Shown: positions 22,257 through 47,674 of the stretch, in pieces | Position numbering within the stretch: position 1 is the stretch's first letter | Layout of the letters: every line of letters begins with the position of its first letter | DNA from: a virus | Lineage: Duplodnaviria; Caudoviricetes | DNA: 64,000 nt | Reading direction: 5' to 3' (one strand) | Virus record (IMG/VR): IMGVR_UViG_3300003316_000301 | Location: 64,001 to 128,000 of that record | The notes under the pieces: generated by a model | The model's database searches: none | Told to the model about the DNA's origin: nothing | Seen by the model: the letters and a program-made list of their open reading frames with translations, nothing else | Program-made: the position numbers and the translations under genes

Positions 22257-22297
22257 TGACGTCGTCAAGGTTACTACAAGGATTCTTGGAGGGTCAA
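22257..22297 (-). promoter_or_regulatory. Repeated promoter TTGACC-N18-TAACCT
   Basis: CCTTGACGTCGTCAAGG dyad plus spacer CTACAAGGATTCTTGGAG. Confidence 0.85.
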
Positions 22298-26322: not shown

Positions 26323-26563
26323 GAGATGTCTCCTCTCGCTTTTTAAAAACGATCTGAAGCCTCTCCCCGTCACCGAAGACGCGGATGTCGCTGTCGAACA
26401 GCTCTGCACCGGGCTTACGCCCCTCCATCAGTTCGTTGCGAGCGAGCCCGAAGAGCTTGCTCAGCTCGGCGAAGGGCGCCCCGTTGTCCATCGAGTAGGA
26501 CACCGTGGTCGTCACGGTCTCCTCGCGGTCGTAGCTCTGCATGAGGTCCTCCAGGTACGGCAC
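26309..26563 (-). CDS. Hypothetical protein
   Basis: Carries an in-frame TTT AAA motif. Confidence 0.65.
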   Translation of the reverse strand: MPYLEDLMQSYDREETVTTTVSYSMDNGAPFAELSKLFGLARNELMEGRKPGAELFDSDIRVFGDGERLQIVFKKREETSRDRT

Positions 26564-26614
26564 AGGGCCGGATCCCGTCGTGGGGACCGGCCCTGTGCGG
26601 CAGGCGTTCGAGCT

Positions 26615-27091
26615 TCAGGCGGAGGCGTCGGCCGCGTCGGCCTGGGTGTTGTCCACCAGGGTGACGCCGTCGGAGAGACGCTCCACCGAGTCGACCTTGT
26701 CCTCCGGGACGATGTACTCGGTGCGGGAGTCCGCGCCGCGCACGTTGGTGACCAGCGAGTAGCGGCCCGGCTTGTCGCCGGAGCCCGCCTGGAACAGGAC
26801 GTGGTCGGCCTTGACGTCCTTGGTGGTGCCGTCGGCCAGGTTGACCCGGTAGACGTGCTTGCCCTCGACCTTGACGTCCAGCTCGGGCTTCGGGACGACG
26901 CGGTACTCGTCGACCGAGTCGGCCTTGATGGACTTCACCACCGTGGTGCCGTTGTAGTCGTCGACACCCTCGACGTAGCCGTGGAAGGTCAGACGGCCGT
27001 CGGCCTCGGTGACGGTCTGGGCCTTGACGACCTCGTTGGGGCGGTCGTCGGCGTAGACGATCTCGAAGGCCTTGGTGTTGCGCTCGCTCAT
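26615..27091 (-). CDS. Beta-rich repeat protein (possible longer start at 27388)
   Basis: AGGAG SD at MSERNTK; repeats FEIVYAD..VKAQTV / YRVNLADG..VKADHV. Confidence 0.7.
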   Translation of the reverse strand: MSERNTKAFEIVYADDRPNEVVKAQTVTEADGRLTFHGYVEGVDDYNGTTVVKSIKADSVDEYRVVPKPELDVKVEGKHVYRVNLADGTTKDVKADHVLFQAGSGDKPGRYSLVTNVRGADSRTEYIVPEDKVDSVERLSDGVTLVDNTQADAADASA

Positions 27092-27413
27092 GGGTTTCTC
27101 CTGCTTCCCGGGCGCCTTGGTGGCGCCTGCTTCGGTTCGGATCGGACTGGCGGGCTGTTCGCTGACGAACATGCGATTGGTGCTCGAATCCAGGTAGATC
27201 TTGCCCGAAGGCACGAGATTCGACATCTGGATGATCGCGTCCGACAGTTGCGAACTGGTGATGGGCGAGTACGAGAGGTTCGTCGAGGTGACCCCCTCGT
27301 ACGTTCTGACCGCCCCCTGGTTCACGGCCCTGGCTGCAATGGCCTCGAACTCGGCGGCGTTGCTCCACTCTTCCAAGCTGGGCTCCAAGGACCTTCGGGT
27401 GAATGCGGATCAC

Positions 27414-27443
27414 ACCCTACTCGAAGGATCCTTGGTTGCTCAA
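27414..27443 (-). promoter_or_regulatory. Repeated promoter TTGAGC-N18-TAGGGT
   Basis: Spacer CTCGAAGGATCCTTGGTT. Confidence 0.7.
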
Positions 27444-27929
27444 CTAGACGAGGGAGACGATCTCCTCGTCGGCAAGGCCCTCGCCGTCCCATCGGACGAA
27501 GGTCTTGCCCTTGTAGACCTTGAAGGTCGACGTGTCGGCCCCCGGCTCGGTCCACACCTTGAGCCGCTTGGCCTGGGTGAAGTCCTCGTGGATGGCCGTG
27601 ATCTCGCCGTCCCAGTTGTGCCCCGGCAGGTTGTCCCGCAGCGGGTAGAAGGTCTCGAACAGGTCGTTGTGCATGGAGACCCGGTCGTGCGAGGGGACGA
27701 GGGCGATACCCCGGACGACGTGCAGCGTGCCCTCGTCCGTCTCCTTGTCGAACTCGTCCAGCATGATCTTCAGCGGGAAGTACTCCGAGAAGACGTTCTC
27801 CGGGGTGGCGTACCTCTCCTGGTAGGACTTCAGCCGCCTCATCATGACCTCGGCGGCCTTCTTCAGCTCCTTCGCGCTCAGCGCCGGGGTGATGTTGATC
27901 GTGCCGCTGATGTGCCATTCAGTGCCCAT
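27444..27929 (-). CDS. Hypothetical protein, probable paralog of 29747..30232
   Basis: MGTEWHISGTINITPALS; leader 27934-27947. Confidence 0.75.
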   Translation of the reverse strand: MGTEWHISGTINITPALSAKELKKAAEVMMRRLKSYQERYATPENVFSEYFPLKIMLDEFDKETDEGTLHVVRGIALVPSHDRVSMHNDLFETFYPLRDNLPGHNWDGEITAIHEDFTQAKRLKVWTEPGADTSTFKVYKGKTFVRWDGEGLADEEIVSLV

Positions 27930-27958
27930 GGGACCTCCTGGGGAGTCGGGATGGTGGA

Positions 27959-28342
27959 TCAGATGATGAGGGCGGCCCTGAGGGCGCCCAGGCCGTCCGT
28001 GGAGGACTCCCGGACGATGCGCCGGGCCTCGGCCTTGCGCTTGGCGGCCTGACGGGCCTTGACGAACTCGCGCTCGTACACGGAGCCGTAGACGCCCTCG
28101 GGAAGCTCCTCGCGGAAGATGTGCGCCATGTCCGAGGAGATCATGCAGGCCATCTTCCAGGTCAGGCCCTCGATGTCCTCGATCACCGGCTCCTCGCCCT
28201 GCTTGCCGTTGGCGTACCAGGAACGGAGATCCTCGATCGCGAGGAGCTGGGCCCGCGCGGCCTTCGTGTTCCCCATCGCTGCTTCCAGCATCTCCTTGAC
28301 GAAGTCGTGCCGGTCGCGCTCGCTGTGGGCGAAGTTCTTCAT
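27959..28342 (-). CDS. Hypothetical protein
   Basis: Leader and promoter. Confidence 0.8.
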   Translation of the reverse strand: MKNFAHSERDRHDFVKEMLEAAMGNTKAARAQLLAIEDLRSWYANGKQGEEPVIEDIEGLTWKMACMISSDMAHIFREELPEGVYGSVYEREFVKARQAAKRKAEARRIVRESSTDGLGALRAALII

Positions 28343-28379
28343 GCGGGCCTCCTGAGGAGTCGGTTCCGGGGCTTCCCCC

Positions 28380-28420
28380 TGACAACGTCAAGGTTACTAC
28401 GGGAATTCCTGGGGCGTCAA
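28380..28420 (-). promoter_or_regulatory. Repeated promoter TTGACG-N18-TAACCT
   Basis: Spacer CTACGGGAATTCCTGGGG; TGACAACGTCA. Confidence 0.85.
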
Positions 28421-28776
28421 GCCCTCTCTTCGAACTCCTCGTGGAGCTGGGAGAGCTTCTCCGTGGGGATCCAGCAGTTCGAGAACGGAGCCCGGCTCCA
28501 GTCGTCGGCGGCCAGGGTGCACAGGCCTTCAGCGGCCACACGGGCCTTCTCCACGGCGTTCGCACGCTTCTGGCTCAGACCCTCCAGGCCCGCGTCCGGA
28601 GTGCGCACGAGGACCTTGGGGTCGCCGTACCGCTGGTAGTGCAGTTCGGCCCGCAAGTAGCGGTTCTCCCTGCTGACGATGAAGAAGATCACCGGGCACT
28701 TCAGGTGCTCGGCCAGCCGTCGGCCGTTGGTGATCCCCTTGGCCTTCAGGGCCTCGCGCAGCTCCGCCCCGGTCAT
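28417..28776 (-). CDS. Hypothetical protein
   Basis: MTGAELRE; ATGA overlap. Confidence 0.7.
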   Translation of the reverse strand: MTGAELREALKAKGITNGRRLAEHLKCPVIFFIVSRENRYLRAELHYQRYGDPKVLVRTPDAGLEGLSQKRANAVEKARVAAEGLCTLAADDWSRAPFSNCWIPTEKLSQLHEEFEERA

Positions 28777-29261
28777 CGCTTGCTCCACTGGATGCCGATG
28801 TTCAGGGCGTTCTCCGTGACGAACTTCCACAGGGCGTGACCACGCATCCAGTGCGGCCCCTCCCACTCCGGCGTGGGAACGACGTGCGTCGCGCTGATCT
28901 TGCCCTCGCCTGAGCGGACGGTCAGCTCGAAGACGGCACCAACGCCCGGGAACATGGGGTCCCGGGTGAGCGGCGGCTCGGGGCTGTCCTCGCTCGGGAC
29001 CTCAGCCTCCCAGATGAGCTGGTCGGTGGTCTCGAAGTTCAGCCCTCGGTAGGGGTCGTCCGCCGGGTTGGCGGAGATGTCGGAGTGCGAGGAGCCGTAG
29101 AGGTACGTACGGGCGTACCAGCGCTCCTCGCCCTCATCGCCCCACCAGACGTCCGAGACGTCTCTGCGGTCGCGGAGGTGCTCCTCCAGGACCGCCTGAG
29201 CGCTCCTCCAGTCGGTCCGGAAGCCCGGCTTGCCGTTGACGGTGAACAGGTAGATCTTCAT
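28773..29261 (-). CDS. Hypothetical protein
   Basis: Leader and promoter. Confidence 0.8.
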   Translation of the reverse strand: MKIYLFTVNGKPGFRTDWRSAQAVLEEHLRDRRDVSDVWWGDEGEERWYARTYLYGSSHSDISANPADDPYRGLNFETTDQLIWEAEVPSEDSPEPPLTRDPMFPGVGAVFELTVRSGEGKISATHVVPTPEWEGPHWMRGHALWKFVTENALNIGIQWSKR

Positions 29262-29307
29262 GAGTCCTCCTGGGGAGTCGGTGCTGACGGCCTCCTGGGT
29301 AACGTCC

Positions 29308-29347
29308 TGACACCGTCAAGGTTACCCCAGGAATCCTTGTAGCGAAA
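29308..29347 (-). promoter_or_regulatory. Repeated promoter (TAACCT -10, weak -35)
   Basis: Spacer CCCCAGGAATCCTTGTAG; TGACACCGTCA. Confidence 0.75.
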
Positions 29348-29351
29348 CCCC

Positions 29352-29750
29352 CTAGCGGGGTCGGCCTCCGTGGAACCGCTGCTCATGGTCCATCATCGAC
29401 GCCACGGCGTTGAGCATGTTGGCCCCCACGGCCAGGGCCTCGTTGTCCGGCAGCTCCTCGCTGACGCTCGACGTCGCCACCAGCGTGCGGGGATCCACCA
29501 GACCGGCCTTGCCCTGGTAGCAGTCCTTGCAGGCCACGTACGCGTGGACCTTCCAGGGGCCGTCCTCGGACTCCAGACCGTGCTCCACGCCGAAGACGTA
29601 CCGGTCCAGCCGCAGGTTGATCAGAGCAAGCCGGAACAGCTCGTTCTTGCGTCGCTTCTCCCGGGCCGCCCTGGCCTCCTGGTGGCGCCGGAGGTTGAAC
29701 TCCGGCCAGCTCTCCCCCTCGCGGGGGCGGCTCTCGATGGCGGTGCTCAT
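29352..29750 (-). CDS. Hypothetical protein
   Basis: MSTAIESR; ATGA overlap. Confidence 0.7.
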   Translation of the reverse strand: MSTAIESRPREGESWPEFNLRRHQEARAAREKRRKNELFRLALINLRLDRYVFGVEHGLESEDGPWKVHAYVACKDCYQGKAGLVDPRTLVATSSVSEELPDNEALAVGANMLNAVASMMDHEQRFHGGRPR

Positions 29751-30232
29751 TCCGGCTCGCCGATCTTGACCGTGGTGACCTCGTTGTCCTGGACCTTGAT
29801 CTGCCAGGCCTCTCCCCCGCCCATGCCGGTCATGATGCCGTTGACCGTGTGGTCGAAGGTGAAGCCGTGCAGGAGGTCGTCCTCGGCGACGAGCTTGGCC
29901 TTCTCGGCGAAGATCCCGGCAGGCCTCAGGAAGTAGTCGATCACGTACCGGATCCAGGGCTCCAGGTCCCCGGCACCCTCCTGGCCGTCCCACTCCAGCA
30001 GGCCGGGCCCGTTCAGGCGCAGGCTGGCGTACAGGGTCGGCATGTCCTGGGCGGGCCGGTTCCAGTCGATCACGTCCGGGTGGGACGCGGTGAGGCTCTT
30101 GCGGATGTCCAGGGGTCCGTGCACGGTCGTCATGTGCCGGGCGTCCAGGAACAGGCGCAGGGCCTTGAACTCGGTCGGGTTCAGCGGCGGCTCGATGTGG
30201 AGCTGGCCCTTGTACTGTGCGTCGAATCCCAT
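29747..30232 (-). CDS. Hypothetical protein
   Basis: MGFDAQYKGQLHIEPPLN..WIRYVIDYFL..HTVNG. Confidence 0.8.
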   Translation of the reverse strand: MGFDAQYKGQLHIEPPLNPTEFKALRLFLDARHMTTVHGPLDIRKSLTASHPDVIDWNRPAQDMPTLYASLRLNGPGLLEWDGQEGAGDLEPWIRYVIDYFLRPAGIFAEKAKLVAEDDLLHGFTFDHTVNGIMTGMGGGEAWQIKVQDNEVTTVKIGEPE

Positions 30233-31417: not shown

Positions 31418-32002
31418 TCACATGCCGATCGCGGCGCGGAGCAGGGAACGGAAGTCTCCCTGGGTCAGGCGTCCCGCCGTGTTGATGACCTCCAGCGTCC
31501 AGGAGAGGCCCTGGCGCTCGGCCTTCGCGATGCCCATGAAGTTGCCGGTGGCCAGCAGGGACGGCTGGATCATGGCGACCTTGTCAGAGCTGCCGCCGGT
31601 GGCGTCGTAGACCGAGACGCGCACGTTCTTGGCCTGGCCGAAGTCCGTGCCCTTCTTGAAGGCCACGAAGGCGAACAGGATCGAGGTGATGTTGTTCGGG
31701 ATCCGGGAGAAGTCGACGGTGATCACCTCGTCGTCACCGGCCTTCTTGCCCCGGTGCTCATCTCCCGAGTGCGTGATGGCGCCGGTCTCCGTCGGGTCCA
31801 GGTTGTCCAGACCCGCGTACATGACCGGGTCCTCGCCCTGCATCAGGACGGCGACGAGGTCCAGGTCCGTGCCGATGAAGTTCTTGATGGCTCCCAGGAC
31901 ACGACCGGAGCCGCCGGTGGACGTGTCCCAGGCCCCGCCGATCTGGAGCTTCTGGACACCGGTGAGGTCGTTGCGGCCGTCGTCCTTGGTGAGTACGTGC
32001 AT
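31418..32002 (-). CDS. terD: TerD-family stress protein
   Basis: GGAWD..TDLDL..ITHSGDEHRGKKAGDDEVITVDFSRIP..I. Confidence 0.85.
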   Translation of the reverse strand: MHVLTKDDGRNDLTGVQKLQIGGAWDTSTGGSGRVLGAIKNFIGTDLDLVAVLMQGEDPVMYAGLDNLDPTETGAITHSGDEHRGKKAGDDEVITVDFSRIPNNITSILFAFVAFKKGTDFGQAKNVRVSVYDATGGSSDKVAMIQPSLLATGNFMGIAKAERQGLSWTLEVINTAGRLTQGDFRSLLRAAIGM

Positions 32003-32070
32003 GAGTGCCTCCTGGGTGGTAAGTGTTCTCTGGCGGTGGCGGGGGCCGTGTGGCCCCCGCCGGGTGGGGA

Positions 32071-32973
32071 CTAGCCCCAGGGGAGTCCGTACTTCTCGGC
32101 GCAGATCGGACCGTAGCCCGCCGCCTCCGACTCCTCCTTGGTGAGCTGCTTGGTGCAGAAGACGCAGCGGTGGTACAGCTCGCCGAACTTCGCGGCCTGC
32201 TCCGCCGTGGCCTTCTTGTCCTCGGTCAGCTTCCGGAAGGGGCTCTGGCCGACGTAGACCCACTTCTCGGTCTCGTCGTCCCACTCACGGGCCGTGGTGT
32301 TGCCGGTCCGCTCGGAGACGATGACCTTGAAGTACGTCCCGTCGACCACGTAGACGCCCTCGGCCGGGATGTAGCGGGCCGGGGTCTCCGCCTTGCGCTG
32401 CTTGTCCTTGTACGGGGCCGCCTTGAGGTCCGTGATGTGCTTGGACGCGGTCTCGAAGGGGAGGTCGGCCAGATTGGCCAGGTCCAGGGTGAGGTCGTGC
32501 TCCCGCTCGGCCAGCAGCTTCTTCAGGAAGCCGAGCTGAGCCGGAGTGATCATCCGGGTGCTGGAGGTCCCCCTGGGGGCGACCGACAGGTCCAGCAGGG
32601 ACTTCATCGCGTCGATGGTCTCGGAGGCCTTCGACTTCTCGATCTCGTTCTGGGCCTGGGCCTGCTCGACGATCAGCCGGTGCTCCGGCGAGAGCAGGTG
32701 CAGCGGGATCCTGCGAGCGAGGGAGCAGACGTAGTTGGCCTGACGCGGACTGGCGGGGGTGAAGACCTCCTTGCCCTCCGCCCGGCCCTGCTTGCGGTCC
32801 GCGACGATGCGCTCGTGCTCGGCGACCTTGCGCTCGTAGGAGGCCGCGACCTGGCAGCAGAAGCCGGAGCCGTGCTCCTTCTTGCCGACAGCGGCGTGGT
32901 CCCGCAGGACGTCACGCATCATGGCGAGGGTGAAGGGGTCCAGCTTGCCGGTGCCGGGGAATTCGTAGGTCAC
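32071..32973 (-). CDS. DUF6011-domain protein
   Basis: C-terminal AAKFG..CVFCTKQLT.EES..AGYGPICAEK; PASPRQ / ITPAQ repeats. Confidence 0.75.
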   Translation of the reverse strand: MTYEFPGTGKLDPFTLAMMRDVLRDHAAVGKKEHGSGFCCQVAASYERKVAEHERIVADRKQGRAEGKEVFTPASPRQANYVCSLARRIPLHLLSPEHRLIVEQAQAQNEIEKSKASETIDAMKSLLDLSVAPRGTSSTRMITPAQLGFLKKLLAEREHDLTLDLANLADLPFETASKHITDLKAAPYKDKQRKAETPARYIPAEGVYVVDGTYFKVIVSERTGNTTAREWDDETEKWVYVGQSPFRKLTEDKKATAEQAAKFGELYHRCVFCTKQLTKEESEAAGYGPICAEKYGLPWG

Positions 32974-33654: not shown

Positions 33655-34743
33655 TCAGCCCATGTAGGGCTTGATCAGCTCGTCGATGATGCCGACGGCC
33701 TTCACGGGCGCCTGGGTGTTCAGGGCCTCCTGGACCTTGTTCAGGAGCATCCGGAAGGACTTCATGATCTGTTCGGTCTCGACCATGTGAACCGCGTCCT
33801 TGCCGGACAGCTCCTTGGACAGGTCGTGGATCTTCTTCTTCGCCGCCTCGCTGGCCTTGTCGAACGCGGCCTTGGCGTCGGTGTACTGCTTGTCCGACAG
33901 GGAGAGGTCCCGCTCCGCCTCCCTGCGGACTTGGGCGATCTGGTCCTCCAGTTCGGCAACCTGCTTCTTCAGGCCGTCGATCTCAGCCGTACCAGCCGAC
34001 CCGGCGAAGTTCTCCCCGAGAACCGAGACGAGCAGTTCCAGCGCGTCATTGACGTCAGAGGGGAGGGCGGGGCTGTGCACGGGGGAGGTCTCCTGGGTCT
34101 CGGGGGCGGAGAGGACGGTTTCCGGGTTGTAGACGCCATGGCGGAAGCCCCGGTGCATGGCGAGCCCCTGCGGGCGCTTGGAGGTGAACTTCTTGCCCTG
34201 CTCCCAGCACTCGATGCAGTAGTACGTCTCGACCCCGTGGAGGTTCACGAGGAAGAGGCTCGACTGCGTCTGGCCCAGGAGCGCCGGGTCGAAGACCGGG
34301 ATCTCGGTCGGCAGGACGCGGACCTCCTTCACGGGCTCGGGCTCCGGCTGAGCGTCCACGAGTCCGCCCTGGGTCGCCTCTTCGGCCTTCTTCTTGGCCC
34401 GGTCCGCTTCGGCCTTCTTCTTGGCCTGAGCGGCCTCGAAGGCCTTGCGCTGTGCGTTGGCCGCCTGCGCCTTCTTCTCGCCCTCCGCCTCCAGCTCAGC
34501 GAGAAGAGCCTCGGTCTCTTCAGGCGTACGGGCCGGGCCCTCGCCGATGAGGTTGTACTGGCGGGCGTTCGAGCGGAACACCTTCATCGACTCGTCGTTG
34601 GGGTTCAGACCGATCGTGATCGCAACGCCGTCGGGCGCGCTGATCACGATCTTCTGGTTCCGGATCGAGACGTCCCAGTCCGCAGCCTTCGCGAGATCGA
34701 TCGCGTTCTGCACCTCAGCGGGTACGCGCTTGTTACCAGCCAT
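33655..34743 (-). CDS. Protein with HicA-like N-terminus, C2H2-type Zn finger and coiled coil
   Basis: AKAADWDVSIRNQKIVISAPDG..ITIG..P.D; YYCIEC..GLAMHRGFRH. Confidence 0.6.
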   Translation of the reverse strand: MAGNKRVPAEVQNAIDLAKAADWDVSIRNQKIVISAPDGVAITIGLNPNDESMKVFRSNARQYNLIGEGPARTPEETEALLAELEAEGEKKAQAANAQRKAFEAAQAKKKAEADRAKKKAEEATQGGLVDAQPEPEPVKEVRVLPTEIPVFDPALLGQTQSSLFLVNLHGVETYYCIECWEQGKKFTSKRPQGLAMHRGFRHGVYNPETVLSAPETQETSPVHSPALPSDVNDALELLVSVLGENFAGSAGTAEIDGLKKQVAELEDQIAQVRREAERDLSLSDKQYTDAKAAFDKASEAAKKKIHDLSKELSGKDAVHMVETEQIMKSFRMLLNKVQEALNTQAPVKAVGIIDELIKPYMG

Positions 34744-34780: not shown

Positions 34781-34809
34781 AACCTACTACCAAGGATTCC
34801 TGGAGTCAA
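34781..34809 (-). promoter_or_regulatory. Repeated promoter TTGACT-N17-TAGGTT
   Basis: Spacer core CCAAGGATTCCTGG. Confidence 0.8.
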
Positions 34810-37800
34810 GCTCCCAGCTTCACCGGCTCCCAGCTACCTCCGATGCAGAGCATGATCTCCTTGACGTCCCAGGTCGCAGGCTCGACCTTGGGCAGGAACC
34901 GCACGTGGCTGTTGTGGTACTTCAGCGTGATGTGCGGAGTCCATCCATGATCATTGCGGACCTTGTACCCGTGCTCCACGAGGAGTTCGTTCAGGTCGTG
35001 CCGGATCGCCCCTCCCCCGGGGATGTCCACGGCGGCCCACAGGACATGGTTGCCCGGGTTGGTGAAGGTACCGGCTCCGCCGACGCTGGCCTTGAAGGGC
35101 TTCTGCGTACGGGCCCACGCACGCACGAGGGAGTCCAGCCCGGCCACCTGGTCCTTGGAGTGCTCCGTCTTGCTCCCGAGGTAGCACAGGGTCACGTGGA
35201 GGGCCTCCAGGGGCTCCCCGTCCTCCACCAGCAGTTTCCGGCCGATGCTCTTGGGCGGCACGATGGCGATCATGATGCCGTCGCCGTCTGTTCCCGAGGC
35301 CTGGGAGAACAGGCCGGACAAGGTCCTCCTCGCCGTCGTGGGGACCCAGGGGCTCGGTCCGGTGGGCGAGGAGTTCTTCCACTCCCGCAGGCGCTCCCAG
35401 GGCCGGTCAGGGTGCTGGTCGAGGTACTTCTCCACGACGTTCGAGAGATCGAAGAGCCCCTTGCCGTTACCAGTGAAGGCGTCCGAGCGGTGGGTGTGCA
35501 GCTCCTCCCAGAGGTTGGCCGCCATGCGCTGGCGCTCCTCCTCCGGCAGCCTGCCGATCGCCTCGATCTCGTGGAGCAGGGTCTCGGCATAGTCCCAGTA
35601 GGACTCCGGCAGGTGGGTGGCGCTCCAGTCCTTCGGGACCTCCAGGGGGTGCACGGCCCAGGTGTCGTCGGTGACGTCGTAAGCCGCGTACGGCTTGAGG
35701 TTCCTGATGTCCCAGGCCCGGGGGTTCACGAAGAACGTCCGGTCGAAGGGGCCCACCTTGCGGCCGTCGGCCAGCTCGAAAAAGTAATTGTCGACATTCG
35801 CCTTGGACCACAGGGCGTCCGTCATCTGCTGGGCGATCTCGGCATCGTCCAGCTCCTCGTGATCCGGATTCTGGTCGCGGAACTCGGTCCAGTCGATGCC
35901 GATCAGGACGTCGAAGTCCCCGTTGAAGGGCTGCCACTTGGCCGCCTCGGACCCGGCGAAGTACACCTTGGCCCAGGTCTCCCAGCCGTCGTACAGGTGC
36001 CCCAGGACGCGCCCTACGCGGTCCAGGATGTCCTGGCGGACCTCCGGGCGCAGGTGGTCGCCCTCGAAGATGCGCTGGTCGTTCTGGGCACTGTTGGGGC
36101 CCCAGTACCGGCCCTCGGGGAGCCAGGTGTGGGTGTGGGTGTAGACCGGGTGGTCCCCGATCGTGGTGTTGTCCTCGTGGCCGTGCGAGCCGTCGTCGTG
36201 AGCCCAGCCGTCCATGGTGGTCATCTGGACCCGGTGGCCCTCGTTGTCGGTCCCCATGGTTCCCGGCGGCGTGTAGGCGGCCGTCGTGGACGAGGAAGAC
36301 CCCGAGTCTCCCCCGGCGTCTCCCGAGTCGTCAGAGCCGCCCTGAAGGGCTTCCGGGACCCCTCCCATCCACCGGTTCTGGGTGTGCTTGCGCTTCTCCT
36401 CGTCGGCCTCCATGGCCCCTTGATGCTGGGCGGGTGCCTGGAAGTGCTCGTCGAACGTTCTCAGGGCGTTGTGGTGACCGTAGTGGCCCAGCAGCCCCCG
36501 GAACGTGTCAACGAAGTCCTGACCATGGCCGCCCGAGGTGAGCAGGTGGGCCATCTCGTGCAGTACAGCGTGGTTGTGGAAGTGGTTCGAACCCAGGTGG
36601 AGGCGAAGCTGCTCGTCCGGCTCCCCCAGCTCGTCCTCTCGCACGACGTAGCTGTGGTTCGGACGCAAGGTCGGCCTGACGGCCAGGTCGGCCGCCTGCG
36701 GATGCCCGTGGTCGTGCAGGATCTGCCGGGCGTGGTCCCCGGCCTCCTCCAGATCTCCGTAGCGCTGGAGATCGTGACCGCCCTCCGTCATGGCCTTCTG
36801 AGCCGCGTAGACGTTCGTGGTCCACGCATCCCTCGCCGCTGTCGAGCGCACCCCCTCCGGGTCGGAGAGATCCGGCCTGGTCAGACAGACGAACTGAGGG
36901 CTCTTCCGGGTGAACAGCCGCATCTGCCGGTGCGGGACCTCGGTCTCGGCCCGGTGGCGGACCTCCGGCCAGGACTCGGCGAAGCCGGGGTGCAGCTCGC
37001 CGGACTCGTGCATCTCGTCGATCTGGGGCGCGGTGAACCACCGGTGCCCGGCCGCCTCGTGGGAGTGCGAGCCGTCCTCGGAGGGTGTGAACTTCTCCGG
37101 GGTGTCGGCGATCACCGTGTGGTACGACCAGCCCCCGTGGTCGTTGGAGTGCGTGCCGATGTGGCCGAGCGGCGGCAGACCTCCCAGCTCCTCGTCACCC
37201 TCTCGGGTACCAGCCTCGAAAGGGGTCTCACCCCTCTCGATCGCTCCGCCGGGGATGGACCAGGTACCCGGGTGGTCGACGTGCCGCGAGCGCTGCTGGA
37301 GCAGGTAGTGGTGGGTCCCCTCCAGGTCCGTGTGGCGCACCAGGAGTCCAGCCGCTCCGCGCGCTCCCCAGTGGTCGTGTCCCTGGGCGCAGGTGACCTC
37401 GTCGGGGTCCTTCGCGGCGTGCACCCGGATGGGGTTGTCGAAGGTGTGGGTGACAGGCCCGCGTGCCGAGTGCCAGGTGATCCCCCGCACGTTCATGGGG
37501 GCGTTGCGCTTGAGGGGCACCTCCCGTTCGGGGTCCATGTCCCAGTCCCGTACGGCCCGGTCCTCCAGCACGTACGAGTTGTCCTCGATGTGGTGACGCT
37601 CGGGAGTGTCGGCGTGCAGGACCACGGCTGTCTGCCCGGGGCTGAGCCGGTCGCCGTTGAGGTGGTGGTAGCCGGGATCGTCGGTCCAGTGCACGCCGAC
37701 GTTGCCCTTGGTCAGGGTGTGCTGGAGGACGGCTCGGGCCCGCTCATCCACCGGGAGCTTCTCGTTGTGCGCCGGGTGGCTGCTGGGAAGGTCCAGGGCG

Positions 37801-39071
37801 AGGTGGCGGTACACCCGGGACTGGAGCTTGGGGTGCCACTGGTCCCACATACGCTTGTGGAAACCGTCGTCCTCCTCGTACTGGCTCTCCCCGACCTGCC
37901 GGGGCAGGCCAAAGCTCACTCCCGCCGTACGGGGCTCCAGGGGCTTGGCGGAGAAGCCGATCTCGCTCGGCTTGATCTCCGAGGGGATGTGCTCGCCGGT
38001 GGCCTCCGCCGGATGCCGGGCGGGCGCCGGAGCACCCTTCCCCGCGAGGCCGAACATGTTCCGGCTCACCCGCACGGGGACGTGATCCATCCCGAGGACC
38101 CTGGCCGCCCGCAGCCGGTGGTTGCCCTCACCGAGGTAGGCCTCCCCCGTCTTGGGGTGGTACTGGAGCATCAGGGGCTCCATGTAGCCCTTCTCGGCGA
38201 AGTGGGTCGCCACCTCCCGCGCGTGGTCCCCGTCGGTCTCCTGAGTGGCGTACGGAGCCAGCTCGTGTGTGGGCACCATCTCCACGTTCGGATGACCGGC
38301 GGTGTGCACCCGCACCCGGATGCCGTGCTGGTTCAGAAACCGGGAGGGGATGTCCCCTCCGTCGTACCTCGCTTCCAGGTCGGCCTGCTTGCGCACGGGG
38401 CTGGAGAAGTCGTACCGGTTGAAGGGCGTTCCGGTGTGGAACTTCATGCCCTCCTCGGAATACTTCTGCCCCGAGGACCAGTGGTCATTGCCCTCTCTCC
38501 ACGAGACCCCCGTGACCTTCATCGGGGCCCCGGGACGGACCGGCAGGCGCCAGGAGATCTCGGGGTCGTACTTCTCCCCGGGCCGCATGTTCTCGTGCCA
38601 GTGGTGCTTGTCCGGCGGGGTCTCGGCGTGCATGACGATGTGGGTCGTCGGGCATCCGCCGTGACCAGACTCCTCGTCGCCGCAGTTGTGTTTGCGCTCG
38701 TGGTCGTTGTACGTCCCCCAGCCGGTCTGGTTGGCGTACTCGGCGGCCTTGTGGGGGCTCGGGCTCCAGTAGTTGCCGAGGCCGCCGGTGGAGCCCTCCT
38801 CGCCCTCCGGGCCCTGGTTCTGGGCGTTCTGCTTGCGGACCTCGCTCAGCAGCAGGTGTGCCTTGGCCGCCGGGGGCTGGTTGGGGTCGTGGACGAACTT
38901 GTGGACCTCCGGCCGCAGGACCACGGACAGGCCACGGTGGACCCCCTGGTCCCGGGTGTAGCCGCTCTCGTCCGGCCGTCCCATGGGCTGCGCGTGGTAC
39001 TGGCTCTCCTCGGCGGGCGCCGCCGTCTTGTGGGCCGCCGTGGTGAACAGCTCGGTCAGGGTCTGGGACAT
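34806..39071 (-). CDS. Multi-enzyme (polyvalent) protein, ~1421 aa: ART-like x2, ParB/Srx, Nudix, HExxH peptidase, Pol-beta NTase, 2H phosphoesterase
   Basis: GGAGGT SD at MSQTLTELF; EGNHRLRAARVLG; Nudix box GGAIERGETPFEAGTREGDEELGG; HEMAH; FAGS..GDFDVL; HVTL/HITL. Confidence 0.85.
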   Translation of the reverse strand: MSQTLTELFTTAAHKTAAPAEESQYHAQPMGRPDESGYTRDQGVHRGLSVVLRPEVHKFVHDPNQPPAAKAHLLLSEVRKQNAQNQGPEGEEGSTGGLGNYWSPSPHKAAEYANQTGWGTYNDHERKHNCGDEESGHGGCPTTHIVMHAETPPDKHHWHENMRPGEKYDPEISWRLPVRPGAPMKVTGVSWREGNDHWSSGQKYSEEGMKFHTGTPFNRYDFSSPVRKQADLEARYDGGDIPSRFLNQHGIRVRVHTAGHPNVEMVPTHELAPYATQETDGDHAREVATHFAEKGYMEPLMLQYHPKTGEAYLGEGNHRLRAARVLGMDHVPVRVSRNMFGLAGKGAPAPARHPAEATGEHIPSEIKPSEIGFSAKPLEPRTAGVSFGLPRQVGESQYEEDDGFHKRMWDQWHPKLQSRVYRHLALDLPSSHPAHNEKLPVDERARAVLQHTLTKGNVGVHWTDDPGYHHLNGDRLSPGQTAVVLHADTPERHHIEDNSYVLEDRAVRDWDMDPEREVPLKRNAPMNVRGITWHSARGPVTHTFDNPIRVHAAKDPDEVTCAQGHDHWGARGAAGLLVRHTDLEGTHHYLLQQRSRHVDHPGTWSIPGGAIERGETPFEAGTREGDEELGGLPPLGHIGTHSNDHGGWSYHTVIADTPEKFTPSEDGSHSHEAAGHRWFTAPQIDEMHESGELHPGFAESWPEVRHRAETEVPHRQMRLFTRKSPQFVCLTRPDLSDPEGVRSTAARDAWTTNVYAAQKAMTEGGHDLQRYGDLEEAGDHARQILHDHGHPQAADLAVRPTLRPNHSYVVREDELGEPDEQLRLHLGSNHFHNHAVLHEMAHLLTSGGHGQDFVDTFRGLLGHYGHHNALRTFDEHFQAPAQHQGAMEADEEKRKHTQNRWMGGVPEALQGGSDDSGDAGGDSGSSSSTTAAYTPPGTMGTDNEGHRVQMTTMDGWAHDDGSHGHEDNTTIGDHPVYTHTHTWLPEGRYWGPNSAQNDQRIFEGDHLRPEVRQDILDRVGRVLGHLYDGWETWAKVYFAGSEAAKWQPFNGDFDVLIGIDWTEFRDQNPDHEELDDAEIAQQMTDALWSKANVDNYFFELADGRKVGPFDRTFFVNPRAWDIRNLKPYAAYDVTDDTWAVHPLEVPKDWSATHLPESYWDYAETLLHEIEAIGRLPEEERQRMAANLWEELHTHRSDAFTGNGKGLFDLSNVVEKYLDQHPDRPWERLREWKNSSPTGPSPWVPTTARRTLSGLFSQASGTDGDGIMIAIVPPKSIGRKLLVEDGEPLEALHVTLCYLGSKTEHSKDQVAGLDSLVRAWARTQKPFKASVGGAGTFTNPGNHVLWAAVDIPGGGAIRHDLNELLVEHGYKVRNDHGWTPHITLKYHNSHVRFLPKVEPATWDVKEIMLCIGGSWEPVKLGA

Positions 39072-39116
39072 GGCCACCTCCACCCCTTCGGGCTTGTACT
39101 GCACCCAGAGACAGCA

Positions 39117-39144
39117 GAAGGCCCCCGAGTGAACGGGGGCCTTC
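39117..39144 (-). terminator. Hairpin between terminase and polyvalent gene
   Basis: gaaggcccccg-agtgaa-cgggggccttc. Confidence 0.55.
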
Positions 39145-39286
39145 CAGCACAGTGAAGCGAGATCCCGCCAGAGATCCGACTCAGGAGGCCGCTCGCCGAG
39201 GAGCAGACCAATCACTGCGTACGTGGCCGGGTGAAACGGCCGATATCGAAAGCATGCCATGATCGCAAGCTCTTCGGCAAGGTCGC

Positions 39287-41356
39287 TCACATGCGATTAC
39301 GCCGACCACGGGAACGGGCGCTCTCGTGGAACATGTCCTGCCGGGCTCCCCGGGCCCGGCCGAATCCCCCGAGCTGACGGAAGACGTCCTGGTCAGTCCT
39401 GGGACCACCGGAGAACTCGTCTCCCCGGCTCATGCCCGGGAAGGGGTGGATACCGCTCTGCATGGCGCCCTGGGGCCGCATGGCGCCCAGCTCGGAACGC
39501 AGGGAGATGATCTGGTCCCCGATCAGGGCCATGACGCACTCCATCATCGCGTCGGCGACGTCCTTCGTCTGGACCGGCCCGGAGTCCGGGTGGTCCACCA
39601 CGCCGTTCTTCTCCTGGAGGAACCTCAGCTCCAGTTCGGCCTGCTCGTAGTAGGGCGCGTGGACCCAGCCCATGTTCACGGCGGTCTTGAAGATCTCCGC
39701 CCGGGTCCAGTTGTGCTGGCGGGTCGCGGTCTTCTCGTAGACCTGGGTGACCTTGGGCAGACCGGACTGCCGGGACCTCTTGGCCAGACGCTGGATGACC
39801 TGGGCCGAGTTGAACTGGTCGAAGGTCATCTCGGTCGGCATGAACGGCGAGAGGATGTTGCCCCAGATCCACTCCTCCACCTGGTCGTAGTCGACGATGT
39901 GATCCGTGAAGTCCTGCGGCCGGAAGTGGTGGATCCGGTCGAACACCACATGGAGCCGGTTGTCCGGGCCCGGCTCGGCGTGGGCGCAGGCCAGACCGAA
40001 GTTCGCGTTGGACTTCGAGGGGTCTCCGTGAGCCTTGTAATCCAGATCCATCCGGCCCCGGATCTGCATGCCCAGCTCCGGCTGGCCGTAGAACTCCTGA
40101 CGGGCGTGCCAGGGATGGAAGATCTCCTTGACCTTCTGCTCGTTGAGGTAGGCGTCCAGAGCCACGGCGAAGTGGCTGCGGCGCTCGACCTTGAAGGTGT
40201 CGGGGTTGGCCTGCTCCTCGCGGGCCATCTGGTCGTCGTACGCCTGAATGGCTCCCCGCAGGGGCTGGAAGTAGAGGGTCGGCTTGCCCTCGTACTCCCC
40301 GAGGTCGCCGGTGTAGCCCTCGGGGAACACCGGGATCGTGTGCGCGATCTCCCAGTCCTTGTAGATGTCCCAGCTCGCGAGCTGGATCATCAGCATCTCG
40401 GGGTAGACCGGCTCCCCGTTCTCGTCCTCCATGATCGAGTTCTGGTAGTTCACGTAGAACTGCCCGAGCATCTGCCAGGGGCTGGACGGCTCGATGATGA
40501 ACGCGTCCATGCCGAACTGGTCCAGGGACGGCTTGGCCGCCGCGTAGACCTCCTCGGCCGACCGGTTGGCGCCGGAGGCGACCACGTGGGCCATCTCGTC
40601 CCAGGCCTGGCAGAACGAGGTCGGACCTCGTCCGGCCATCAGCGTGGACTCCTTCGGGACCAGCTCGAAGGTGGCCATGTTGATGTCGTCAGGGTTCATG
40701 CCCTGCTCGGCCCGCTTCCTCATCCGCAGGAAGTCGTTCGGGGCGTAGATCGAGAGCTTCTCCGCCTGGAGGGGCGCACGGATGTACGGGGCGAAGCAGG
40801 CAGAGCCGGTGATGTAGTTCACCGCGTCCTGCCACACCGTGGCCTTGGCCTGGTCCCGCTTTCCGGCGAACACCATGGCCACGAGCTTCTTGTCCCGGTC
40901 CACGCCGTAGTAGCGCTGCGGGTCGCCCTTGGCCATGTAGTTCCACAGCACGTAGGCCATGGACAGGCCGGAGATGTGGCCCTTACCGGCACGGCGGCCC
41001 ATGACCAGGAGGGTCTCCCGGAACCACTTCCGGCCCTCCTTGCGGAGCTTGGCCATCCTGCGCCGGACACCGGGCACGACTCCGTTGTTGCCGGTCTGCC
41101 GGAAGCTCTCCTCCCACTCGTCGATGACCGCGTGGTCGTACTCCGTCAGCAGGTCGAGCCGCAGGAAGATGACCTTCAGCAGTGTGGCCTGGCGCGGGTA
41201 CATGTTCGGCCGGTCCAGGTAGTCCGCACTGAGCACGAAGGTGATCGGGTCGGGTACCGGAAGGCCGGTGAAGAGCTGGAAGAGCTTGTCCGGCCCGAAG
41301 GCGGGCGGCAGCGTGGAGACGCGCGGCTTGGACCGGACCACAGTCTGGGCGGCCAT
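39287..41356 (-). CDS. terL: Terminase large subunit
   Basis: YPRQ, Walker A MGRRAGKG, Walker B AWDEMAH, SSP, nuclease HGDPS..TFDQFNS..TKDVADA. Confidence 0.9.
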   Translation of the reverse strand: MAAQTVVRSKPRVSTLPPAFGPDKLFQLFTGLPVPDPITFVLSADYLDRPNMYPRQATLLKVIFLRLDLLTEYDHAVIDEWEESFRQTGNNGVVPGVRRRMAKLRKEGRKWFRETLLVMGRRAGKGHISGLSMAYVLWNYMAKGDPQRYYGVDRDKKLVAMVFAGKRDQAKATVWQDAVNYITGSACFAPYIRAPLQAEKLSIYAPNDFLRMRKRAEQGMNPDDINMATFELVPKESTLMAGRGPTSFCQAWDEMAHVVASGANRSAEEVYAAAKPSLDQFGMDAFIIEPSSPWQMLGQFYVNYQNSIMEDENGEPVYPEMLMIQLASWDIYKDWEIAHTIPVFPEGYTGDLGEYEGKPTLYFQPLRGAIQAYDDQMAREEQANPDTFKVERRSHFAVALDAYLNEQKVKEIFHPWHARQEFYGQPELGMQIRGRMDLDYKAHGDPSKSNANFGLACAHAEPGPDNRLHVVFDRIHHFRPQDFTDHIVDYDQVEEWIWGNILSPFMPTEMTFDQFNSAQVIQRLAKRSRQSGLPKVTQVYEKTATRQHNWTRAEIFKTAVNMGWVHAPYYEQAELELRFLQEKNGVVDHPDSGPVQTKDVADAMMECVMALIGDQIISLRSELGAMRPQGAMQSGIHPFPGMSRGDEFSGGPRTDQDVFRQLGGFGRARGARQDMFHESARSRGRRNRM

Positions 41357-41365: not shown

Positions 41366-41833
41366 CTAGTGGCCCCAGGCGCAGTGGAGGAGGCCCTTCT
41401 CACGGTCGAGAATGGTCCACCCGCGCAGTTGGGCCAGATCGATGGTGCTGAGGCTCTCAGAGGCGTCCTGCGGCCTCCAGAAGACGGACTTGCATCCGTC
41501 GTGCGAGCACTCCACGTGGTCGGGGATCCGCTCCTCGGGCACAGGGCCCTCCTTCACTCGCTCGAACCGGAGACGGACCTCTCCGTCCACCTCCACCGTG
41601 TCGAAGAAGTTCTCGGCCGGGCGGGCCCAGACCTTGCCGTCTTCGCCCCGGTAGATGATCAGCGCCTCACCGGTCTCGGTGTGCTTAGCGCCGTGCAGAA
41701 CCTCGTAGAGGCTGCCCTTGTAGTGGCGCCACATGCCCTCAGGCTCTGCGATCTCGATCGTGATGCAGCAGATGGACGGCTGGTCCCCATGGACAGAGCA
41801 GCGGAAGACCGTCGGAAGACGGAAGTCCTCCAT
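41366..41833 (-). CDS. DUF1653-domain protein
   Basis: GMWRHYKGSLYEV..AKHTETGE..IIYR..VWARP..F..RF. Confidence 0.85.
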   Translation of the reverse strand: MEDFRLPTVFRCSVHGDQPSICCITIEIAEPEGMWRHYKGSLYEVLHGAKHTETGEALIIYRGEDGKVWARPAENFFDTVEVDGEVRLRFERVKEGPVPEERIPDHVECSHDGCKSVFWRPQDASESLSTIDLAQLRGWTILDREKGLLHCAWGH

Positions 41834-42285
41834 CAGTGACCGCATCCTTTGCCGTGCCGGTGGCCCTTCTGGACCTCCAGGATCTTGCGGGCGTCCTCGG
41901 CGGTGAGCTTGAGCTTGCCGCCGGTGCCGAGCTGGAGCAGGTCCGACTGGACCTCGTGGGACATCCGGTCGTGATCGAACACGAAGCTCTTGGCGTCCGT
42001 GCGGCCGGTGATGACGATCTCGGGGATCAGGGTCCCCTCCACCTCGGTCATGGTGCCGTCGGGGTTCGCCACCCCGGCGGAGTACCAGCGCACGGAGACC
42101 GTGAGGCCCGCCTCCAGGAAGCGGTTCTTGGCTTCGTCGGTGAAGGCCTCGTAGCTCATGCGGGCCGTACGGGTCCGGCGCTCGTTGAGCTTGTCCAGGA
42201 TCCCCTCGACCTTGATGATCTCGGAGTCGTAGAGGTTGATCGTGGAGCTGACGCCCCCGGCCTCTTCGGTCACTGCGGTGGTCAC
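41833..42285 (-). CDS. Hypothetical protein
   Basis: GTGA overlap. Confidence 0.75.
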   Translation of the reverse strand: MTTAVTEEAGGVSSTINLYDSEIIKVEGILDKLNERRTRTARMSYEAFTDEAKNRFLEAGLTVSVRWYSAGVANPDGTMTEVEGTLIPEIVITGRTDAKSFVFDHDRMSHEVQSDLLQLGTGGKLKLTAEDARKILEVQKGHRHGKGCGH

Positions 42286-46201: not shown

Positions 46202-46811
46202 GGTGGATCGCCTTCAGGCCGACGAAGACCGCGTCCCGCACGTGCTCCGTCCACGCACCGGTGCCCTTCTCGTGCCAGGTCACCAGGGATTCCACGACGT
46301 CGCTGGAGACCTTCTTCGTGGCCCCCTTGTCCCCACAGAGGGCCGCAGCGGCCGAGGTGCGGGAGACGAACGTGGGCCACGGCTTGCCGATCCGGTCCAG
46401 TTCGATACAGATCGTCACGGCGGCCACGAGAGAGGACTCCGTGCGGTACCCGGTGACCGACGGCAGTTCGATGACCACTTCGTCGTACGAGTACAGATGA
46501 TCTCCGAGCAGCGTCCTGAGCCGCCGGGCCAGAACCACGGCCTTGGTGAAGGTCCCCTCGAAGCCCTTGGTGTCCACCTGGGGCGGCCGGATCGTGCCGG
46601 AGTGGGCCACGTGGATCTGGTTGCGGGTGCCCAGCAGGGCCCAGCCGCAGTTGTTCAGGGCCTGGTCAAAGCACAGGACCTTGCGGTCCGGCTCGAAGTC
46701 GTCCGGCAACGGGGGGCGCCAGTCCTTGGCGGGCTGGACCTTCCGCGCTCTGGCGGCCTCTTCCTTGATCCGCCGGAGGATCTCCTCCGGCAGCATGCTC
46801 GTCACGCTCAT
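46194..46811 (-). CDS. ruvC: RuvC-like Holliday junction resolvase
   Basis: VLCFDQALNNCGWAL, VVIE, ATKK, HVRDA. Confidence 0.8.
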   Translation of the reverse strand: MSVTSMLPEEILRRIKEEAARARKVQPAKDWRPPLPDDFEPDRKVLCFDQALNNCGWALLGTRNQIHVAHSGTIRPPQVDTKGFEGTFTKAVVLARRLRTLLGDHLYSYDEVVIELPSVTGYRTESSLVAAVTICIELDRIGKPWPTFVSRTSAAAALCGDKGATKKVSSDVVESLVTWHEKGTGAWTEHVRDAVFVGLKAIHRV

Positions 46812-46828
46812 GGTCTCTCCTGGCGGGA

Positions 46829-47674
46829 TCAGATGGTTCGGATGGTGCAGCCCGTGGCGGCGCAGGAACCGGCCTCAGGGCTCCGTACGGCGCAGCAGGG
46901 CTCCGGCATGTAGCCGGTGTCGGCCCAGCTCCTCACGCGGCGGTACTTGGCCTCTAGGGCCAGCACGTACGCGGCGTCGTACTCGACGTGGATCTCCTTC
47001 ATGACCCAGGGGAAGCCCATGCCGATGAACAGCATGATCATCATCCGGAGGCCGGAGAGGGCCATGTACTCCTGCATCTGGCCGTAGTAGTACGGGTGCT
47101 TGGTCTTCAGCCACTCCAGCGCCTTCTCGCTGGTCGGCCCGTCCGGGATCTTGGCGGCCGAGAAGTGGTTGATGGTCTTGATGTCCAGGCCGGTCATGCC
47201 GAGGGACGGGGTGAGCACCACGCCGTCCATGTGGCCCCGGCGCTTCAGTTCGTGGTCGACGACCCCCGGCTCCCCGCACTGGCCCTCCTTGGGGCCGTAC
47301 GGGCGCGAACAGGCCGGGCAGGTCCCCTGGGGGATCTGCCAGATCCGGAGGTCCCTGAGGGCCATCTGGACGATCTCGTGCTCCAGGGTGCCCACGGTGA
47401 CCGACATGCGGCCCTCGTAGCTCCAGGGCTCCGGCTCCCACCGGTCCGGCTGGGTGAGGTACAGGTAGAGCTTGCGCTCCGGCATGGTCGGGTGGGTGGA
47501 GGGCCAGAACCAGTCGTTGGGCTCCCGGTCGGGATCCCCGCCCTCCAGCCGGATCATCGTGTTTCGGGGGAACCGGCCCTCGGCGATGTAGAGACGCACC
47601 AGCGGCGCGAGGACGTAGCCGCTTGCGGCGGCAGCCCCCTCGCGCCGCATAGCGGCTTCAGGATCGAAGCTCAT
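46829..47674 (-). CDS. Cas4-like PD-(D/E)XK exonuclease
   Basis: GT..H, GHMDG, DIKT, QMQEY, C-terminal Cys cluster. Confidence 0.8.
   Translation of the reverse strand: MSFDPEAAMRREGAAAASGYVLAPLVRLYIAEGRFPRNTMIRLEGGDPDREPNDWFWPSTHPTMPERKLYLYLTQPDRWEPEPWSYEGRMSVTVGTLEHEIVQMALRDLRIWQIPQGTCPACSRPYGPKEGQCGEPGVVDHELKRRGHMDGVVLTPSLGMTGLDIKTINHFSAAKIPDGPTSEKALEWLKTKHPYYYGQMQEYMALSGLRMMIMLFIGMGFPWVMKEIHVEYDAAYVLALEAKYRRVRSWADTGYMPEPCCAVRSPEAGSCAATGCTIRTI

Follow-up and report, generated by a model that had tools for sequence, protein, structure and literature searches.

The 64,000-nucleotide stretch of viral DNA considered here (the window) runs from base 64001 to base 128000 of one contig of 155,979 bp, whose guanine + cytosine (GC) content is 67%, the IMG/VR virus record IMGVR_UViG_3300003316_000301 (Duplodnaviria; Caudoviricetes), which is rated 100% complete by CheckV. 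One of its genes, called Q in the following, lies directly downstream of a terminase large-subunit homologue and encodes a fusion of seven modules. Q is a phage-type polyvalent protein at a fixed, hypervariable, terminase-adjacent locus. On balance we consider it probable that Q is a polyvalent effector which is loaded into the procapsid by means of a short N-terminal leader, possibly processed, and released with the DNA, its modules being concerned with NAD+/ADP-ribose, RNA-end/nucleotide and DNA chemistry. The gene, its neighbour and the modules, whose residues are numbered from the ATG at 39071, are as follows; ART stands for ADP-ribosyltransferase and NTase for nucleotidyltransferase.

39287..41356, minus strand: terminase large-subunit homologue, 689 amino acids (aa), immediately upstream of Q
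34806..39071, minus strand: polyvalent protein gene Q, 1421 aa plus the stop codon, frame open
38367..38969, minus strand: module A, residues 35-235, ART-like, a paralogue of module C
37947..38309, minus strand: module B, residues 255-375, ParB/Srx-like N-terminal domain with a GEGNHRL motif
37392..37919, minus strand: module C, residues 385-560, ART fold with R422, W462-T463 and E515-R-E517
36945..37388, minus strand: module D, residues 562-709, Nudix hydrolase, RenU-like
36372..36869, minus strand: module E, residues 735-900, candidate SprT-like zincin with HExxH (HEMAH, 838-842) and HGxxF
36192..36371, minus strand: low-complexity linker rich in Gly, Ser and Asp, residues 901-960, ending in SSSTTA and a further A
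35331..36143, minus strand: module F, residues 977-1247, Pol-beta NTase-like core plus a helical domain, family-defining
34809..35288, minus strand: module G, residues 1262-1421, 2H phosphoesterase, LigT/ThpR-like

Polyvalent proteins are multi-effector fusions described by Iyer, Burroughs, Anand, de Souza and Aravind (2017, J Bacteriol 199:e00245-17; PMC5512222). Megablast of the Q gene against 50,697 phage records found nothing, and 71 homologues were found which share the NTase and 2H core (modules F and G), while the modules upstream of it vary and include Nudix, ParB, GNAT, true ART-PolyVal, SprT-like, Arr or Arr-ms and zinc-ribbon domains, the ParB-like module being optional across the family. 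Because such shuffling of upstream modules is the class-defining behaviour (PMC5512222), the Q family belongs to the polyvalent class. In this respect a preliminary description of the window, made from the sequence alone, was right in calling Q a fused multi-enzyme phage protein of polyvalent type: it has seven modules, within the two to fifteen effector domains required of the class, and they are shuffled or displaced among the 71 relatives. The gene is also phage-encoded, since the genome specifies a tail sheath, a baseplate wedge, a portal, a tape-measure-like protein, a major head protein and the terminase (besides a Pol III-alpha-type polymerase, helicases and an endolysin). As for the link to packaging, Q adjoins the terminase gene and this synteny is kept, yet Q has no MuF or portal domain.

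Compared with the polyvalent proteins of the 2017 survey, Q has an overlapping repertoire (ART, zincin peptidase, ParB, GNAT and 2H), shuffled domains, a phage gene beside packaging genes and a predicted delivery by the capsid. It differs in that it lacks a MuF, portal or N4-vRNAP anchor, that its constant core consists of an uncatalogued Pol-beta NTase-like module and the 2H module, that its ART-like modules are not Pfam ART-PolyVal, and that an N-terminal leader and x-(T/Q/H)-A junctions are the hallmarks of the family.

The motifs from which the preliminary description had recognized the modules were all found in the translation where it had placed them on the DNA: EGNHRL at residues 315-320, the Nudix box at 608-630, HEMAH at 838-842, GS at 1040-1041, DFD at 1052-1054, HVT at 1292-1294 and HIT at 1380-1382. 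Two modules, D and G, are above their Pfam cut-offs with intact motifs, so that their identification as Nudix and 2H proteins stands. Module D matches PF00293 with an E-value of 4.3e-12 (46.6 bits against a cut-off of 21.1) and has the complete box G608-x5-E614-x7-R622-E623-x2-E626-E627-x-G629 (consensus GX5EX7REUXEEXGU). Its nearest solved protein is RenU (6uuf, E 2.7e-14), similar over nearly the full length including a C-terminal LHPGFA-SW motif. RenU acts as a hydrolase on ADP-ribose, FAD and NADH but does not cleave NAD+ (PMC4401782); it is a stand-alone mycobacterial enzyme regulated by PknG and L13, whereas module D is fused in a phage protein. Module G matches PF13563 (E 4.8e-12, 46.6 bits against a cut-off of 27) and has H1292-V-T and H1380-I-T; it also resembles TIGR02258 below that family's cut-off (E 6e-10) and the "2'-5' RNA ligase" 1iuh in the PDB (E 3.3e-7). 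The NCBIfam search of Q gave only sub-threshold matches of MutT and ThpR type.

Module F was assigned by its motif and its predicted fold. G1040, D1052 and D1054 do not vary among 42 sequences, at least 90% of which also have S1041, giving the G-S...D-x-D pattern (DFD in Q) of Pol-beta NTases, whose motif is hG[GS]-x(9-13)-Dh[DE]h. In the structure model, which has a mean predicted local distance difference test score (pLDDT) of 82.8, the motif residues are borne by strands 75-80 and 93-100. The top Foldseek matches are Pol-beta NTases without exception, namely AadA (with the best E-value, 2.9e-3), CdnE, CdnD, Cid1 and TUT7, and VIA places minimal NTases first (1ylq, Z 6.0; HEPN-MNT, Z 5.7; HI0073, Z 5.6). 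Neighbours in the ESM-Atlas with TM scores of 0.71-0.75 are viral hypothetical proteins, and further clusters have PF01909 in 19-30% of their members. Stand-alone copies of module F occur in Streptomyces phage BRock and its relatives. Thus the NTase called in the preliminary description is borne out, although at low scores.

Module C has the fold and the motif order of an ART. Its AlphaFold model (pLDDT 88.4) gave weak Foldseek matches (E 0.04-0.8), headed by pertussis toxin S1, PltA, CARDS, LT and TreTu. In the exhaustive VIA search, 55 of 48,161 chains reached Z>=2, and ART-fold proteins make up most of the best 50 of these 55 and 14 of the top 15. The best were Scabin (Z 4.6) and pertussis S1 (4.5), followed among others by IcmQ, PltA, TreX, DarT, Tpt1, pierisin, PARPs, Arr and diphtheria toxin. 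R422, G459, W462 and E517 are invariant in the alignment of the module, and T463 and E515 are conserved in at least 90% of the sequences, which gives the order R-(S/T)-ExE. Module C thus shares with the R-S-E clade of ARTs (Scabin, pertussis S1, PltA, LT, pierisin, DarT) the fold, the arginine, the aromatic-Ser/Thr pair and the order of the Glu-x-Glu motif, but the likeness amounts to Z<=4.6 and 10-15% identity, and module C is without a Pfam match.

Module A was assigned to the ART fold by its homology to module C, the structure models covering C and F: the two modules align in hhalign with 99.6% probability and an E-value of 5e-25. Searched on its own, module A had nothing at E<=10 in a profile search of PDB sequences and nothing at E<=1 in Pfam. 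Its S173-W174-R175, part of a near-invariant SWRLP, aligns with the E-R-E of module C. Because S-W-R replaces E-x-E and the catalytic glutamate is gone, module A is probably not a canonical transferase. Consequently, of the two ART-like domains in the preliminary description, C is upheld by its fold and motif order and A by homology to C, but A has lost the glutamate; the AlphaFold check proposed there, run on C and F, returned the ART fold and the Pol-beta NTase fold with modest scores.

Pfam ART-PolyVal (PF18760) was considered for modules A and C and rejected: in relatives, the genuine PF18760 segments have other positions and show no alignment to A or C. Neither Q nor 35 module-A sequences matched PF18760 at E<=1, and in relatives P0026 and P0027 PF18760 occupies other segments, with a probability of 0.7% in hhalign against module C. 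For the isolated modules A, C and F no Pfam family was found at E<=1. A profile search with the ART-like module among 1.84 billion representatives gave 356 proteins at E<=1e-3, 107 of them at E<=1e-30; the carriers are nearly all 700-3700 aa long and often have 2-6 copies. Two of the giants, P0197 and P0198 from public metagenomes (3000-3714 aa), contain up to six ART-like copies with a Nudix domain directly after one copy; almost nothing beyond that is recognized in them by Pfam. Fold matches in BFVD include "ParB-like nuclease domain proteins" of the mycobacteriophages Bigswole, Stubby, Myrna and Tonenili. Since these giant proteins and BFVD matches repeat the pairings seen in Q, ART-like plus ParB and ART-like plus Nudix look like recurring pairs.

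For the ParB/Srx domain and the HEMAH zincin claimed earlier, the motifs are present but the profile matches are sub-threshold. Module B scores 18.7 bits with Pfam ParB_N, below the cut-off of 26.3, and matches a ParB-like PHROG (6e-5) and the PDB ParB 6t1f (E 0.0033); PF02195 is recorded on four close homologues (P0003, P0004, P0006 and P0014). In module E, H838-E-x-x-H842 and a following G-H-G-x-x-F are invariant in the five sequences that have the module. Profile hints were YgjP-like (E 0.067) and, on P0027, SprT-like (E 0.25), and the language-model neighbours include SprT-like clusters (score 0.91). The module is absent from the closest homologues, P0003-P0009.

The evidence for delivery with the head comes from the leader, from a second protein of the same phage and from the relatives of module G. 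The leader occurs twice in Q.

39036..39071, minus strand: leader MSQTLTELFTTA at the N-terminus (residues 1-12), which may be a signal for capsid targeting or processing
35298..35327, minus strand: internal leader copy R-TLSGLFSQA, residues 1249-1258, directly before the 2H module

The leader, the N-terminal peptide of Q, aligns with the true N-termini of relatives. Its motif M..TLxxLFxxA, more exactly M(x)0-4-(T)L(T/S)xLF-x2-3-A, is the N-terminal peptide in 42 of the 50 closest relatives, whichever module follows; in relative P0039 the N-terminal leader directly precedes a start of 2H type, as the internal copy does in Q. Moreover, on pRLB1-9.1 of Streptomyces sp. RLB1-9 (NZ_CP041653.1), a complete circular 154,158-bp "plasmid" related to the phage, the polyvalent gene, within the region 55077-68924, is split into open reading frames (ORFs) of 895 and 828 aa with a 4-nt overlap, and the two share one leader variant at their start, MTDISATSFFRQAG and MTEFNAVAHFRQAA. 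This split form, read as a natural experiment, suggests that each separately made piece would need its own leader. A tyrosine recombinase is encoded about 3 kb downstream of the split gene.

From residue frequencies, about 0.16 chance occurrences of L[TS]xLF..A are estimated for the 45,200-residue proteome of the phage, and three were seen: the two in Q, and one in P0073 only (LLTDLFVTAA, residue 287). P0073 (916 aa, genome positions 19527-22277, minus strand) is encoded outside the window. Its start matches the PHROG "head maturation protease" (2.7e-23) and is followed by the leader-like LLTDLFVTAA and by DUF7178; reading of the sequence finds the His/Ser and E-x-S-L-V-x-x-P-A features of HK97-type S78 proteases, and no family was found for it in NCBIfam. 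Its C-terminal part has a long region rich in Pro, Gln, Gly and Asp, then Cys-pair zinc-ribbon motifs. In 11 of 120 P0073 homologues, from sister phages, there is a Nudix domain 40-54% identical to module D, placed between the protease and DUF7178 in nine of them and at other positions in P0171 and P0183; another homologue bears an A-like module. Because sister homologues hold Nudix, GNAT or ParB modules, P0073 itself is taken as a polyvalent-type head protein.

A third protein, P0194 (1262 aa, genome positions 26339-30127, minus strand), is encoded inside the block of portal, tail-fibre and protease genes and contains the ART-like module seen in Q (E 1.4e-44; a strong copy and a weak one) together with an Arr-ms domain of the rifampin-ART family at 808-902 (E 1.6e-5, just above the cut-off). 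A Cys/His cluster resembling a SWIM-type zinc finger was noticed in P0194 by eye.

In addition, the nearest 2H relatives outside the family have been annotated or profiled as fusions of portal/MuF or capsid-maturation-protease type. They include gene 18 of the Arthrobacter phages Laroye and Salgado and the MuF/protease fusion of Streptomyces phage Abt2graduatex2, with 2H domains 27-32% identical to that of Q over about 120-155 aa; P0066, P0069 and P0071 likewise combine Phage_portal and/or Mu_F with 2H. The MuF- and portal-fused 2H genes sit in the head region and their 2H domain is fused to a head protein, while in Q it is joined to the NTase and five further modules. Together these observations point, indirectly, to Q modules travelling with head-assembly proteins.

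A possible parallel is known from phage T4, in which the internal proteins IPI-III and Alt, a diverse anti-host cargo, are brought to the scaffolding core by a common short N-terminal capsid-targeting peptide (PMC3012670). As with the T4 cargo, a leader of about 12 aa is the sole constant N-terminal feature of the Q family before variable modules. The two differ in that the T4 signal has no sequence similarity to the Q leader, and in that Q is a fused polyprotein whereas the T4 cargo consists of small separate proteins.

The joints between the modules have a pattern of their own. Modules A and C end in an invariant or near-invariant alanine after K/R/H/T-x, and module F ends in VPTTA. Q holds 20 [TQH]A dipeptides, and seven of about 14 clusters of BLAST break-points, at residues 12, 230, 383, 552, 931, 1247 and 1258, lie within five residues of one, against an expectation of about 1.8 (by a rough binomial estimate, P is near 1e-3). 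In the linker, break-points cluster at residues 929-935. Q may be cut at x-(T/Q/H)-A junctions, by the S78-like prohead protease and/or by its own zincin.

In the mechanism that we consider probable, the leader would steer Q into the procapsid as the T4 capsid-targeting sequence does, Q would possibly be cleaved at those repeated x-(T/Q/H)-A junctions, and the resulting pieces would enter the host together with the DNA. The NAD+/ADP-ribose arm would consist of the ART module and the ADP-ribose/NADH-type Nudix, a pair kept in much larger relatives, the RNA-end/nucleotide arm of the NTase and a 2',3'-cyclic/2'-5' phosphodiesterase, and the DNA arm of a ParB-type nuclease or NTPase. Several observations weigh against this picture. 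Neither MuF nor portal nor any other known head-anchoring domain was found in Q with Pfam, and over 60 kb separate the gene from those for the portal, the protease and the capsid. A strong hairpin parts Q from the terminase gene, and no promoter was recognized between them. The ParB and zincin modules are sub-threshold, and the absolute scores of the ART and NTase fold matches are low (Z 4.6 and 6.0). Furthermore, the P0073 leader at the junction of protease and DUF7178 is kept only in the five closest homologues and so is not a universal feature.

A more specific form of the mechanism is tentatively offered as a possibility: the leader would be a capsid-targeting signal and x-(T/Q/H)-A the sites of the prohead protease, the polyprotein would be cut inside the procapsid into six or seven free enzymes, to be injected along with the DNA, and the terminase-adjacent locus and the prohead-protease gene would be interchangeable "cargo slots" that swap Nudix, ART-like, GNAT and ParB modules from phage to phage.

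The preliminary description had gone in another direction and proposed an injected toolkit which writes (ART, NTase) and erases (Nudix, 2H) immune nucleotides against CBASS, Thoeris and type III CRISPR before phage transcription. We regard this as doubtful. There are 2H enzymes able to destroy cyclic oligonucleotides, for which Pfam has the Acb1 family (PF23474), and such a role was proposed for polyvalent 2H domains by Iyer et al. 2017 (PMC5512222). Module G is like Acb1 in being a phage-encoded 2H domain with two HxT/S motifs, but its best matches are of LigT/ThpR type; PF23474 had no match in Q at E<=1, and no Acb1 chain is among the PDB matches at E<=1. Similarly, the presence of CdnE and CdnD among the top folds of the NTase model speaks for the toolkit, but they are no better than AadA, the minimal NTases or the TUTases (E about 3e-3, TM about 0.25, Z 5-6), and although the Nudix and 2H motifs are intact, module D is closest to RenU, with ADP-ribose, NADH and FAD as substrates. 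With the NTase unclassified in this respect and module A lacking its catalytic glutamate, the claim of writers and erasers of nucleotide signals has no specific support. The claim of packaging and injection is plausible through the leader, the exchange with the protease fusion and the MuF/portal-type 2H relatives; the disarming of immunity joined to it is not specifically supported.

The main rival to the procapsid-loaded effector, in our estimate an unlikely one, is an unpackaged cytoplasmic multi-enzyme for RNA-end repair and NAD/ADP-ribose housekeeping, in which the leader would be a folding, translation or processing element. The lack of a MuF or portal domain and the distance from the head genes agree with it, an NTase with a 2H enzyme is the classic pair of RNA-end healing, the relatives persist as circular plasmids, and the phage also encodes a match to the phrog_850 "RNA-binding protein" (572 aa, genome positions 46429-48147, plus strand, E 8.9e-48). 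However, no RNA ligase was seen beside the Q gene, and polyvalent 2H domains have never been linked to ligases (Iyer et al. 2017, PMC5512222). The leader is, moreover, common to Q and the prohead-protease protein, modules are exchanged with the latter, and a copy of the ART-like module is encoded amid the structural genes. It is highly improbable that Q serves a phage-plasmid as its partition or maintenance protein (ParB): NCBI names P0073 relatives "ParB/RepB/Spo0J family partition protein" and the element family is known as a circular 154-kb plasmid, but the ParB-like module is sub-threshold and optional, it comprises only the N-terminal ParB/Srx part with no centromere-binding domain detected by Pfam, no ParA neighbour was found, and six other enzyme modules would be left unexplained.

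The start codon and the surroundings of Q bear on how it is expressed. The further elements in the gaps before and after it are the following.

39116-39145, minus strand: GC-rich 12-bp hairpin without a U tract, between the terminase stop (39287) and the ATG at 39071
34781..34809, minus strand: operator-type promoter TTGACT-N17-TAGGTT, overlapping the Q stop codon and predicted to drive the next gene (ATG at 34743)

The open frame spans 34806..39290 (minus strand) as a single ORF, and the GC content at third positions of the Q gene is 0.90. The ATG at 39071, given already in the preliminary description, proved to be the correct start, with GGAGG at 39077-39081, 5 nt upstream. Longer starts of 1484 or 1494 aa (the gene-caller product, P0002, has 1484 aa) were rejected: they would translate the GC-rich hairpin, and the N-termini of relatives match the ATG at 39071. 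The 1484-aa version is probably over-extended, because GGAGG, the relatives' N-termini and the hairpin all favour the ATG. The hairpin (61-nt fold, dG -33.6 kcal/mol, z -4.1) is terminator- or attenuator-like in its predicted structure. A sigma-70 consensus scan of the gap between terminase and Q gave no promoter, and no canonical terminator was found there.

The 689-aa neighbour is a terminase homologue, as had been supposed: in tblastn 85-92% of its length aligns, at 33-36% identity, with annotated terminases in 228 phage records, mostly of Bixzunavirus mycobacteriophages but also of Rhodococcus phages E3 and Finch, and it matches phrog_2 with an E-value of 5.3e-7. In Bixzunavirus and Rhodococcus phage E3, which have the nearest annotated terminases, no polyvalent gene was found after the terminase, and hence the polyvalent locus appears specific to the present phage lineage. 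In a relative of 158 kb, the polyvalent gene is preceded by one for a protein of 688 aa, the size of a terminase; on a 156-kb contig that is more distant, the 679-aa protein encoded upstream shares 51% identity with the terminase, with one small gene between.

On the other side of Q, the element TTGAC(N)-CCAAGGATCCTTG-like dyad-TAACCT is repeated at 11 promoter-like sites on the minus strand between 8602 and 34809 of the window (8602, 10808, 11514, 14447, 15844, 22268, 22915, 24644, 28391, 33014 and 34781), about 40 nt upstream of accessory genes, and a twelfth copy lies outside the window at genome position 133167. The spacer of the element contains the dyad, which resembles an operator. Copies of this promoter family are located downstream of the Q gene and none was found upstream of it. 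The gene downstream of Q (33655-34743, minus strand, 362 aa) has only a weak alanine-zipper/coiled-coil match, and probably starts at the ATG at 34743, which has GGAGG upstream, rather than at the TTG at 34809. Neighbours at 31418-32284, 32071-32973 and 41366-41845 (minus strand) include TerD-domain (E 2.5e-13), DUF6011 (2.2e-11) and DUF1653 (9.7e-21) proteins, of which the DUF6011 gene stays downstream of the polyvalent gene in relatives.

Homologues of the proteins of the phage are found on 150-158-kb contigs in Streptomyces and Kitasatospora assemblies. From these replicons and from the circular pRLB1-9.1, judging by the record names, we infer that the lineage behaves as a phage-plasmid or persistent phage of Streptomyces-type hosts. 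It belongs to a family of about 150-160-kb myovirus-like phages or phage-plasmids of Streptomyces-type actinobacteria.

The polyvalent class, and the idea that ARTs with genes close to that of the terminase are packaged in heads (Iyer et al. 2022, PMC9503650), are already published. What is new is the family with the NTase and 2H core, its conserved leader and its junction motif, the swapping of cargo modules with the gene for the prohead protease, two domain families that Pfam does not contain, and a Pol-beta NTase in a phage-type polyvalent protein; in the 2017 survey this domain was found only in those polyvalent proteins that conjugative elements encode (PMC5512222).

Polyvalent proteins are a predicted and almost untested route by which enzymes could be delivered ahead of phage gene expression. 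The Q family offers experimental handles on this route: a short leader which can be fused to reporters, a natural split form with a leader for each half, and a prohead-protease protein with the same cargo modules in sister phages. Since its relatives are circular plasmids of about 154 kb in cultured Streptomyces, they should be inducible and open to genetics. Furthermore, two non-Pfam domain families are exposed, the ART-like module (356 representative clusters, nearly all giant proteins) and a phage-specific NTase-like module, and the recurring pairing of ART and Nudix points to NAD+/ADP-ribose chemistry at the start of infection.

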